From: Ferrovibrio sp.
GTDB lineage: Bacteria; Pseudomonadota; Alphaproteobacteria; Ferrovibrionales; Ferrovibrionaceae
DNA length: 64,000 bases
Assembly (NCBI RefSeq): GCF_025869515.1
Contig: NZ_JAOZVR010000055.1
Coordinates: 389 to 64,388 of the forward strand
Direction of reading: 5' to 3'
The translations under genes were made by a program, and so were the position numbers. This document shows positions 15,447 through 54,577 of this stretch, one piece after another. The notes beneath the pieces are model-generated. The model did not search any database and was not told where the DNA came from. It worked only from the letters and a program-made list of their open reading frames with translations. How positions within the stretch are numbered: the first letter of the stretch is position 1; each line of letters begins with the position of its first letter.

Positions 15447-15564
15447 CGTCATCCTCGGGCCCAAGGAATGCTTCTTGGCCAAGGATCCATCTGCCCAAGC
15501 CAACATGCACCGGCCGATACGCGTAGGGTTGGGATGGACCCTCGGAATAAATCCGAGGGTGACG
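15447..15564. repeat. Inverted doublet of CGTC-tagged REP-like hairpins
   Basis: Plus copy CGTCATCCTCGG...CCAAGGATCCATC (15447-15491); minus copy reads CGTCACCCTCGGATTTATTCCGAGGGTCCATC (15533-15564). Confidence 0.8.
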
Positions 15565-15620
15565 ATGGGAGGGATAGCGTATCCAGCAGTGATATCACCG
15601 ATATCAAAACGCCCTTCTGA

Positions 15621-51860: not shown

Positions 51861-52859
51861 ATGGCCAAATTCCTCGTCACCGGCGGCTGCGGTTTCATCG
51901 GCTCGCATCTTGTCGACCAGCTGCTGCGCCAGGGCCACCGCGTGCGGGTGCTCGACGACCTGTCCAGCGGCCGCACCCAGAATCTGGCGCCCGAGGCCGA
52001 ACTGATCCTCGGCGATGTCGCCGATCCGGCCCTGACGGCGATGGCGATGACCGGCGTCATGGGCTGCTTCCACCTGGCCGCCTGCGACAGCGAAGATGAC
52101 TGGCTGGCCGCCCACCGCACCAACCACGTCGGCACGCTGACCGTCTTCGCGGCGGCGCGGGCCCGTTCGGTGCCCGTGGTCTATGCCTCTTCGGCGGCGG
52201 TCTATGGCGACAGCAGCGATCCGCGGCAGTCGGAAATGTCGGCCACCAAGCCGCTTGATTCTCTGGCCGCCGACAAGCTCGGCTGCGAGCTGCATGGCCG
52301 CATCGCCGCCATGACGCATGGCGTGCCGACCGCCGCCCTGCGCTTCTTCGACGTCTACGGGCCGCGCCAGGATACCGGCTCGCCCGGCGCCGGCATCATC
52401 CGCACCTTCACCACCTGCGCGCTGGCCGGCCAGCCGATGACGCTGGACGGCGACGGCGAACAGGTGCGCGATTTCATTTTCGTCGCCGACGCGGTGGCGC
52501 ATCTGACCGCGGCGATGGACCGGCAGCTGGAACGCCAGCGCGACCGCCGGCCGGCCGCCGCCGGCATTTTCAATGTCTGCACCGGGCAGCCGACGCGCTT
52601 TCGCGATCTCGCCACGCTGATCGCCCGGCTTTGCGGCCGCCAGCCGCAGTTGCGCATGGTGCCGGCCCGCGACGGCGATATCCGCCGCCTGCTCGGCGAT
52701 CCCGCCGCGGCGATCCGGCATCTGCGCGTCGCTGCCACCACGCCGCTGGAAGACGGCCTGCGGCTGACGCTGACCCGCCTGCAGCCCGAGCCGCTGCCGG
52801 ACCCGCATCCGGCCACGCCCTTCGGCGTCCACTGGTCGAGCCGCCTGCTGTCGCAGTAG
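51861..52859 (+). CDS. NAD-dependent epimerase/dehydratase-like protein lacking the catalytic Tyr
   Basis: TGGCGFIG, YASSAAVYG, LRFFDVYGPRQ, RDFIFVAD; the YxxxK position reads LAADK. Confidence 0.85.
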   Translation: MAKFLVTGGCGFIGSHLVDQLLRQGHRVRVLDDLSSGRTQNLAPEAELILGDVADPALTAMAMTGVMGCFHLAACDSEDDWLAAHRTNHVGTLTVFAAARARSVPVVYASSAAVYGDSSDPRQSEMSATKPLDSLAADKLGCELHGRIAAMTHGVPTAALRFFDVYGPRQDTGSPGAGIIRTFTTCALAGQPMTLDGDGEQVRDFIFVADAVAHLTAAMDRQLERQRDRRPAAAGIFNVCTGQPTRFRDLATLIARLCGRQPQLRMVPARDGDIRRLLGDPAAAIRHLRVAATTPLEDGLRLTLTRLQPEPLPDPHPATPFGVHWSSRLLSQ

Positions 52860-52886
52860 ACGGCGAGTCTGACGCTATCACACCAC

Positions 52887-52907
52887 CGTCATGCCCGGGC
52901 ATCCATC
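52887..52907 (+). repeat. Shortened CGTC-tagged REP-like copy
   Basis: CGTCATGCCCGGGCATCCATC: same tag and CCATC tail, loop collapsed to the palindrome ATGCCCGGGCAT. Confidence 0.7.
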
Positions 52908-52925
52908 CCATGCCAGCGTTACGCC

Positions 52926-53213
52926 ATGGCCGGAGGGTGGGTCTACATTGTCACAAACAGGCCGAACGGCACGCTGTATGTCGGCGTGACATCCGATATC
53001 GCGCGCCGCGCCTGGGAACATCGCGAAGGTGTGGTTGCCGGCTTCACAAAGACATACGGCCTCAAACATCTGGTTTACGTCGAGCGGCACGAGGATATCC
53101 GCATTGCGATCCAGCGTGAAAAAAGCATCAAGCACTGGTCTCGCAATCGAAAGCTGCAGATGATTCATGCTGCCAATCCGGACTGGCGCGACCTGTACGA
53201 CACACTGGCCTGA
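52926..53213 (+). CDS. Stand-alone GIY-YIG nuclease family protein, 95 aa
   Basis: WVYIV...TLYVGVT..I.RR.WEH...E..I..EK.IK.W.R..K...I...NP.W.DLY. Confidence 0.93.
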   Translation: MAGGWVYIVTNRPNGTLYVGVTSDIARRAWEHREGVVAGFTKTYGLKHLVYVERHEDIRIAIQREKSIKHWSRNRKLQMIHAANPDWRDLYDTLA

Positions 53214-53235
53214 AATCGACCTTGCAGTGGCGACA

Positions 53236-53320
53236 GATGGACCCTCGGCGCAAGGCCGAGGGTGACGATCTTTGTGGTGTTGAAAGGAATGGATGGCCGG
53301 CACAAGGCCGGCCATGATGG
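53236..53320 (-). repeat. Two REP-like hairpins inverted relative to the copy at 52887
   Basis: Minus strand CGTCACCCTCGGCCTTGCGCCGAGGGTCCATC (53236-53267) and CATCATGGCCGGCCTTGTGCCGGCCATCC (53291-53319). Confidence 0.88.
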
Positions 53321-53356
53321 TAGAGTTTGCGGCAGAGCCGCGCATAATATCCGGCC

Positions 53357-54577
53357 ATGTCCTCCATCTCCGCCTCCCCCGTTCCGTCCGCCTCCCCCAC
53401 GCCGGCCCCGATAACGCCGGCCGTGGCCGCCGGCCTGCTGTCGGCCTTCGTCGGTTTCGCCTCGTCTTTCGCGGTGATCCTGCAGGGACTCATTGCCGTC
53501 GGCGCCAGCCAGGCGCAGGCCGCCTCCGGCCTGATGGCGCTCAGCATCGCCATGGGGCTCTGCGCCATCATCCTCAGCCTGAAGACCCGCATGCCGATCA
53601 GCATCGCCTGGTCGACGCCGGGCGGCGCGCTGCTCGCGGCCTCCGCCGGACATGAGATCGCCGGCGGCTTTGCCGGCGCGGTCGGCGCCTTCATCCTCTG
53701 CGGCCTGCTGCTGACACTGGCCGGCCTGTGGAAACCGCTCGGCCGCGCGGTCGCCGCGATTCCGCCGGCGCTGGCCAATGCCATGCTGGCCGGCATCCTG
53801 CTCGGCCTGTGCCTGGCGCCGGTGAAGGCGGTGGCGGCGCTGCCGGTGGCGGGACTCAGCATCTTGATCGTCTGGGCCCTGGTGGCGAAGTGGAAGCGGC
53901 TCTGGGCGATGCCGGCCGCCGTGCTGGTCACCTTCGGCTTCATCCTCGCCGGCGGCGAGCTGCAGGGCCTGGCGCTCGGCGCACTCTGGCCGCAGCCGGT
54001 TCCGGTGCTGCCGGTCTTCTCGCCCGGCGCCCTGCTCGGCATCGCGCTGCCGCTGTTCATCGTCACCATGGCCTCGCAGAACATCCCCGGCATCGCCGTG
54101 CTGCAGGCCAATGGCTACCGCCCCGATCCGGCGCCGCTGTTCCGCACTACGGGAATCTTCAGCCTGCTCGGCGCGCCCTTCGGCGGCCATGCGGTCAATC
54201 TCGCCGCCATCACCGCCGCGATCTGCGCCGGACCCGAAGCGCATCCCGATCCGGCGCGGCGCTGGATCGCCGCCGTGGTCGCCGGGCTGGGCTATATCGT
54301 CTTCGGCCTGCTGGCGGGCGCCGCCACCGCGGTGTTCAGCGCCGCGCCGCCGGTGCTGATCCAGGCCGTCGCCGGCCTCGCTTTGCTCGGCGCCTTCGCC
54401 AATGCGCTGGTAACAGCCCTGTCTGACCCGCAGAGCCGCGAGGCCGCCGCCATCACCTTCATCGTCGCGGCCAGCGGCCTGACCCTGTTCGGTATCGGCG
54501 GCGCCTTCTGGGGCCTGATTGCCGGCGGCGCCATCCTGGCGCTGACACGCTGGACGGGCTTCAAGCGCGGAACCTGA
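53357..54577 (+). CDS. BenE/YdcO-family benzoate:H+ symporter
   Basis: PISIAWSTPGGALL...PLFIVTMASQNIPG...GGHAVNLAAITAAIC.G..AHPD...R. Confidence 0.92.
   Translation: MSSISASPVPSASPTPAPITPAVAAGLLSAFVGFASSFAVILQGLIAVGASQAQAASGLMALSIAMGLCAIILSLKTRMPISIAWSTPGGALLAASAGHEIAGGFAGAVGAFILCGLLLTLAGLWKPLGRAVAAIPPALANAMLAGILLGLCLAPVKAVAALPVAGLSILIVWALVAKWKRLWAMPAAVLVTFGFILAGGELQGLALGALWPQPVPVLPVFSPGALLGIALPLFIVTMASQNIPGIAVLQANGYRPDPAPLFRTTGIFSLLGAPFGGHAVNLAAITAAICAGPEAHPDPARRWIAAVVAGLGYIVFGLLAGAATAVFSAAPPVLIQAVAGLALLGAFANALVTALSDPQSREAAAITFIVAASGLTLFGIGGAFWGLIAGGAILALTRWTGFKRGT

Follow-up and report, generated by a model that had tools for sequence, protein, structure and literature searches.

A predicted Ssn-type GIY-YIG nuclease gene between CGTC-tagged repeats in Ferrovibrio, and its possible bearing on the spread of these repeats

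Ssn proteins (cd10448, GIY-YIG_unchar_3) are a family of GIY-YIG nucleases that was defined together with the NTS/SRM hairpins flanking their genes (Chenal et al., 2025, Nat Commun 16:2388; PMC11893778). SsnA from Neisseria meningitidis is a single-domain protein of 94 amino acids, the gene of which is bracketed by NTS repeats; the consensus of these repeats starts with CGTCA, continues with a palindrome and is followed by a C. Throughout the family a repeat is found near the gene in 71% of the homologs and on both sides of it in 42% (Chenal et al., 2025). SsnA and three of its homologs bind to the hairpin solely in the form of single-stranded DNA (ssDNA), which they cut on the 5′ side of the tag at a distance of a few nucleotides, whereas the reverse strand, double-stranded DNA and RNA are left uncut. 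Cutting is governed by the three bases before the palindrome and binding by the C after it, and the exchanges Y6A, Y17A and E64A in SsnA abolish cutting (Chenal et al., 2025). In Neisseria SsnA modulates natural transformation. The authors likened the NTS-ssnA-NTS layout to the IS200/RAYT-REP systems, raised mobilisation of the repeats by Ssn as a hypothesis and proposed that tools be built from the ssDNA-cutting activity (Chenal et al., 2025).

Repeats with this tag were surveyed in 2013 as CGTC REPs (Di Nocera, De Gregorio and Rocco, 2013, BMC Genomics 14:522; PMC3733652). They have a CGTC or TGTC tag and a short palindrome, form mostly inverted dimers and are typical of Alphaproteobacteria; the Neisseria repeats were placed in the superfamily as CGTC-1. 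A dedicated enzyme was not found, and neither was a RAYT flanked by CGTC units (Di Nocera et al., 2013). The repeats described below belong to the same superfamily, but whereas CGTC REPs were enzyme-less in the 2013 paper, the gene that is flanked here is that of a GIY-YIG nuclease. Whether Ssn nucleases spread CGTC REPs is the question that this locus touches.

In RAYT/REPIN systems, or REPtrons (Nunvar, 2010; Bertels and Rainey, 2011, PMC3116915) one small nuclease gene likewise lies between inverted hairpin repeats that occur genome-wide, mostly as inverted doublets with conserved spacers, and the enzyme recognises the hairpin in ssDNA together with a 5′ tag, as the protein considered here would by analogy. 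The differences are that a RAYT is an HUH/Y1 transposase (PF01797) acting through a covalent intermediate, where the enzyme at our locus is predicted to be a hydrolytic GIY-YIG nuclease, and that the tag is GTAG there and CGTC (CGTCA or TGTCA) here.

The DNA analysed, in the following called the window, is a stretch of 64 kb from an alphaproteobacterial Ferrovibrio. Its features are collected in Table 1. As the sequence-only reading of the window had it, there is a lone gene for a GIY-YIG protein of 95 amino acids, in which PF01541 (GIY-YIG) matches residues 4–77 with E = 1.1e-13 and is the sole Pfam match. Because of this strong match on the + strand, an antisense open reading frame of 155 amino acids (52878–53345) was taken as spurious. 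The gene stands between those for an NAD-dependent epimerase (51861–52859) and a benE-type transporter (53357–54577). Its GC content is 0.57 as compared with 0.71–0.72 in these two neighbours, and its GC3 is 0.69 as compared with 0.89 and 0.91, which bears out that it has more A/T-ending codons than its surroundings. The GC-poor composition is common to all ssn paralogs of the genome.

Table 1. Features of the window that belong to the nuclease locus and its repeat family. Positions are those of the window.
Feature	Position	Strand	Details
Predicted ssn-type gene (95-aa single-domain GIY-YIG nuclease)	52926..53213	+	Pfam PF01541
Upstream repeat, relic	52887..52908	+	CGTCA tag; 12-bp palindrome without loop; tail TCCATCCC
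Downstream repeat, intact, inverted relative to the gene	53236..53267	-	nhmmer E = 7.8e-6
Second downstream repeat, TGGCCGGC stem	53289..53320	-	nhmmer E = 2e-3
Approximate extent of the cassette, as indel against the empty epimerase/benE site of genome G014	52867..53325		blastn; right edge refined by eye
Gene-less doublet, tags outward	15447..15566		left copy 15447-15493 (+) irregular; right copy 15531-15566 (-) intact
Gene-less doublet, tags outward, 10-nt spacer	49212..49286		copies from 49212 and 49257, both intact

The database holds 6363 homologs of the protein, the best 120 of which are all alphaproteobacterial, and in an alignment of 88 homologs Y7, Y18, R28, H32, E65 and N84 are invariant. 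Three of these residues, Y7, Y18 and E65, are one residue off Y6, Y17 and E64 of SsnA, a correspondence by position and motif only. The NCBIfam search returned no model for an Ssn-type protein; TIGR01453 gave a weak match (22.6 bits, cut-off 56) restricted to the GIY motif. Weak scores were also obtained with the nearest solved structures by sequence, 1ZG2 (BH0048; E = 6.5e-6, 29 bits) and 1YWL (EF2693; E = 5e-3), which are UPF0213/YhbQ proteins, i.e. stand-alone GIY-YIG domains of about 100 amino acids. Similarity at this level would speak for a common fold and for no more than a distant relationship. UPF0213 is presumably a different CDD subfamily from that of the window protein, and we know of no member that is repeat-flanked.

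Since the Tyr/Tyr/Glu positions match and tag, palindrome and trailing C are all present in the repeats, the locus is filed under Ssn/SRM. Judged from size, architecture, catalytic positions and repeat context, it very probably encodes an Ssn-type ssDNA endonuclease with cognate NTS/SRM repeats, cutting 5′ of the tag. The likeness includes a single GIY-YIG domain in a protein of about 95 amino acids, below the upper limit of 150 for the family, an insertion sequence-like layout in which inverted CGTCA hairpins with a trailing C bracket the gene, and the presence of the same repeat in more than 100 scattered copies in the genome. The sequence-only reading knew of no characterised case of a GIY-YIG nuclease paired with such repeats, a view superseded by the definition of the Ssn family (Chenal et al., 2025). 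The locus is therefore a further example of Ssn/SRM and, the partnership being published, adds little as an example.

By analogy with the tested enzymes, the repeat would fold into a hairpin when the DNA becomes single-stranded, e.g. during replication, repair or DNA uptake. The 95-aa protein would then bind the hairpin together with the trailing C, recognise the GTC that directly precedes the palindrome and cut the strand before the tag, at a distance of a few nucleotides; the cut would be hydrolytic, with Mg2+, and confined to the tagged strand. Around the repeats, a system of this kind would most likely determine what becomes of ssDNA and influence recombination. That the nuclease may act as a processor of the repeats, one of the two roles offered in the sequence-only reading, is supported by homology to the four family members that cut ssDNA 5′ of the tag (Chenal et al., 2025). 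The role known from Neisseria may be inapplicable in this clade.

The gene had been described as flanked by three CGTC-tagged hairpins, one upstream and two downstream. All three repeats are at the positions given, but the description fits only the first downstream copy in full. This copy starts 22 nt past the stop codon and has a CGTCA tag, the A of which opens a 9-bp stem with a 5-nt loop; the palindrome is followed by C, then CAT, and the tail is TCCATCTG. As ssDNA it folds with −11 kcal/mol (z −4.6). In the second downstream copy the hairpin is intact (−11.8 kcal/mol, z −4.95) and the tag is mutated, reading CATCA for CGTCA. The upstream copy, 17–18 nt before the ATG, does not fold as ssDNA (−1.4 kcal/mol, z +0.9). 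The ortholog L082 in genome G004 has at this place a full hairpin with the same tag, the same tail and the same 16-nt spacer to the ATG as in the window, and the window's copy is therefore a relic that arose from the TGCCCGGG-stem repeat by loss of 11 bp. With one out of three flanking repeats fully intact, the cassette at 52887–53320 may be decaying.

Elsewhere in the window, two gene-less inverted doublets had been noted near 15447 and 49213. Both are present by sequence and with the family HMM. The two copies of the second doublet fold as ssDNA with z values of −3.84 and −4.65, and the doublet is of a short-spacer class that is seen genome-wide. For the first doublet the z values are −0.46 (left copy) and −4.85 (right copy). 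The left copy has a normal tag and tail, but in place of the loop there are about 25 nt of a different sequence; it folds no better than shuffled sequences. The count of seven copies in 64 kb thus holds, but the hairpin folds in only five of them, and the tag is intact in four of these five.

For a view of the family as a whole the genome was searched (4.89 Mb, 126 contigs, 94.7% complete, 64% GC). The published degenerate SRM string has 125 strict matches in it, about twice the Markov-model background. Within 500 bp of the gene it has none, all three flanking copies being missed; the intact copy at 53236–53267 would need two substitutions, and two other copies in the window do match. This failure is a limit of the string for GC-rich stems and not one of the architecture, and the string was replaced by a structural scan plus a family HMM. 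In its loose form (tag and perfect stem of ≥6 bp) the scan found 17 matches per 1000 tags as compared with about 12 for control tags, which is too noisy for a genome with 64% GC, and the stem threshold was therefore raised to ≥7 bp. With the HMM, built from clean repeat copies and used with a cut-off of E ≤ 0.01, 160 copies were found in the genome. A fixed IUPAC pattern found 141, and none when the pattern was reversed. The tag in this genome is CGTCA or TGTCA, and the stems are GC-rich, 8–9 bp long with a 5-nt loop, and fall into at least four main classes. It is in these stems, for which the published string misses the copies at the locus, that the repeats differ from those described for Ssn/NTS-SRM; further differences are the host, an alphaproteobacterial Ferrovibrio, the number of paralogs (six) and of stem classes (at least four) that a single genome contains, and the two damaged repeats in the local cassette.

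The repeats are arranged with a strong bias. Among 67 adjacent pairs, 50 are in the '+-' orientation with the tags outward, the other arrangements being found 11, 2 and 4 times. Many doublets have a conserved spacer of either 22–23 nt or 34 nt and asymmetric tails, TCCATCCC on one and TCCATCTG on the other copy. The cassette is built in the same way as a gene-less doublet: the tags point outward, both tails are kept and the gene is at the position of the spacer. Since conserved spacers are common to dispersed doublets, the doublets spread as whole units. In one contig (C2:9571-9963) there is a tandem array of three doublets, 145 bp apart and all of a single type with a conserved spacer of 34 nt; this spacer is found again in doublets dispersed over contigs C113, C95 and C109.

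The association of nuclease and repeat is not confined to the window. There are six ssn paralogs in the genome, which are 64–72% identical to the window copy. Six out of six have a repeat at a distance of ≤41 bp, whereas among random segments of 285 bp a repeat at a distance of up to 100 bp is seen in 0.6% only. In a range of 500 bp, tagged repeats flank the window gene, the upstream copy of which is the relic, and five other paralogs on either side. A sample of 80 homolog loci in named genomes (Ferrovibrio, Dongia, Stellaceae, Parvibaculum, Bradyrhizobium and others) gave the same picture: a tagged perfect hairpin lies within 120 bp of the gene at 75 loci and on both sides at 45. The hairpins form a sharp peak inside ±100 bp of the gene and are almost absent beyond 300 bp. 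In the commonest layout one copy, on the strand of the gene, precedes it by about 23 bp, and another, inverted, follows it at about 10 bp. There is thus strong support for what had been proposed from the window alone, namely that the CGTC-tagged repeats have this GIY-YIG nuclease as their specific partner and flank its gene in inverted orientation, as in RAYT systems; homologs are indeed repeat-flanked far beyond random expectation.

The sequence-only reading had also suggested a comparison of the stem with the protein phylogeny. Mapped on the protein tree, the stem class requires 23 changes as compared with 40.8 in shuffles, so that a phylogenetic signal is there. It is not counted as evidence of co-evolution: related orthologous loci share their labels, the TGCC and TGGC classes intermix, and orthology alone could produce the signal.

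A RAYT as the true partner of the repeats is rejected: in a profile search no Y1_Tnp (PF01797) gene was found in the window, as stated before, or in the rest of the 94.7%-complete genome. Of 18 congeners three have a Y1_Tnp gene, in each case with no repeat for about 1 kb around it, and none is found in the five genomes of the genus that are richest in repeats. Neither the 94.7%-complete genome nor the 18 congeners thus yielded a cognate RAYT with these repeats at its sides.

A comparison with an empty site had been recommended. In genome G014 the flanks are collinear with the window (blastn) and 61 bp replace window positions 52867–53401; the epimerase and benE genes are adjacent there, with a 61-bp spacer and no repeat (L083:1432-1478). 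The resulting indel (Table 1) is close to the extent that had been assigned to the cassette. In two other genomes, G004 (L082:1037-1430) and G002 (L085:2715-3213), the flanks are collinear and the interior, i.e. the gene with its spacers, is inverted. In two further sister genomes, one of them G018 (L090:3-359), the gene has the window's orientation and the repeat arrays differ. G018 and G002 agree in the three-repeat array next to the epimerase gene but have the nuclease gene in opposite orientation, which favours an inversion between the inverted repeats rather than insertions that occurred independently. As a module the cassette is structurally unstable: among sister genomes it is absent, present or flipped at one and the same site, probably by way of recombination between its inverted repeats.

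Within the genus the number of repeats per genome ranges from 17 to 190 with the fixed pattern (0–2 with the reversed pattern) and that of ssn copies from 0 to 6. The sequence-only reading had asked whether repeat number follows gene presence, and genomes with more full-length ssn copies do have more repeats (Spearman rho 0.73). This correlation is suggestive only, and its p-value is too favourable, since the genomes are related and many assemblies are drafts. The four repeat-poorest genomes have only ssn fragments or no ssn at all; genomes without an intact ssn still have 17–35 repeats. Three damaged ssn copies were seen, one with an in-frame TAG and two that are short fragments (G005:C4:379616-379897; G009:C54:14051-14254; G010:C18:18317-18427). 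The two genomes with nothing but a fragment are the repeat-poorest, with 19 and 17 copies.

What the nuclease does for the repeats can be read in more than one way. The sequence-only reading had named the nuclease as a possible mobiliser: the ssn cassette would be the autonomous element of the CGTC repeats, its nuclease being responsible for the copying or transposition both of the doublets and of itself, in the way in which RAYTs presumably act on REPINs. This reading can coexist with that of an Ssn-type nuclease; we consider it possible, though clearly on the unlikely side. It would account for the outer build of the cassette, which is that of the doublets with outward tags and tails TCCATCCC and TCCATCTG, the gene taking the place of the 22–23-nt spacer, and also for the orientation bias of the doublets, their conserved spacers and their unit-wise spread. 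Low GC3, six paralogs and one tandem copy, the presence, absence or inversion of the cassette at one site among congeners, a repeat number that tracks ssn copies down to repeat-poorest genomes with ssn fragments or none, and the lack of a RAYT in this genome also speak for it, as does the report of CGTC REPs without a transposase (Di Nocera et al., 2013). Against it stands that the inverted pair offers one cleavable site per strand. GIY-YIG nucleases cut hydrolytically and, to our knowledge, do not rejoin strands, in contrast to HUH enzymes. In addition, the paralogs are 64–72% and the tandem units 88% identical and therefore give no sign of recent gene transposition, 17–35 repeats persist in genomes without an intact ssn, and ordinary recombination between inverted or direct repeats explains inversion and loss equally well. 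A literature search for a link of GIY-YIG proteins to REPIN mobility found none beyond the discussion in the 2025 paper.

The doublet-like build, the site polymorphism and the copy-number correlation are therefore compatible with a mobiliser without demonstrating one. If the reading were correct, the Ssn cassette would be the long-missing autonomous partner of the CGTC REPs, a GIY-YIG ssDNA nuclease that seeds the copying of doublets via host repair or replication, with paralogs specialised for stem classes; in this full form, too, we hold the idea to be tentative and rather doubtful. The genus is well suited for the study of mobility and of paralog-repeat specificity, with 0–6 ssn copies and 17–190 repeats per genome, a site that is empty, filled or inverted, and RAYTs that are rare. 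Moreover, the six paralogs and several stem classes could supply new ssDNA-cutting specificities for the tools proposed in the 2025 paper.

Alternatively the repeats may have been there first, with ssn as a selfish passenger that is copied into doublets by cut-stimulated repair, so that the repeats are the target and not the product. Many GIY-YIG proteins are homing endonucleases, and the position of the gene at the spacer of a doublet, its GC content, low relative to the host, and the two paralogs on contig C71, which lie between doublets with the tags facing the gene, are what homing would lead one to expect; the different layout on C71 suggests several modes of insertion beside repeats. Homing enzymes of the I-TevI type, however, combine the GIY-YIG domain with a separate DNA-binding domain and cut an empty allele as double-stranded DNA, whereas the window protein has 95 amino acids and no second domain. 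Ssn family members leave double-stranded DNA uncut (Chenal et al., 2025), and with 0–6 gene copies for 17–190 repeats most targets are unoccupied. Nor are there near-identical dispersed copies of the gene in the genome. Homing is thus less likely than mobilisation by the nuclease, and we regard it as distinctly improbable. Finally, that an ordinary small gene came to lie by chance in an intergenic region which, like many in this genome with its 160 copies, carries repeats is refuted by the enrichment at the paralogs (6/6 within 41 bp as compared with 0.6% of random segments) and at the homolog loci (75/80, with a sharp positional peak), and deserves practically no credence.

An Ssn-type nuclease with its cognate repeats being the preferred reading of the locus, some further arrangements of genes and repeats in the genome may be mentioned. 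On contig C71 (C71:6143-6975) there are two tandem ssn genes with a period of 407 bp, each followed by a repeat doublet, the units being 88% identical. The tags face the gene, which is the reverse of the usual orientation, and the layout is common to the nearest homologs, L004 and L007 from Ferrovibrio terrae. Contig C71 and several others end in a repeat, from which it follows that the repeats break the assembly.

Beside the dominant classes with GC-rich 8-bp stems the genome contains exact cores of the Neisseria NTS type, in which the tag is followed by TTCCCGCG with a 4-nt loop (C17:13706-13727, C44:3666-3743, C116:6608-6629 and C116:72719-72740). Another form is the double-tagged perfect palindrome, an extended hairpin in which a CGTCA tag starts both strands (C53:47144-47172, C45:3129-3156, C121:27024-27052 and C104:36572-36600); having CGTCA on both strands, it would by the rules of the Ssn family be a substrate on either of them.
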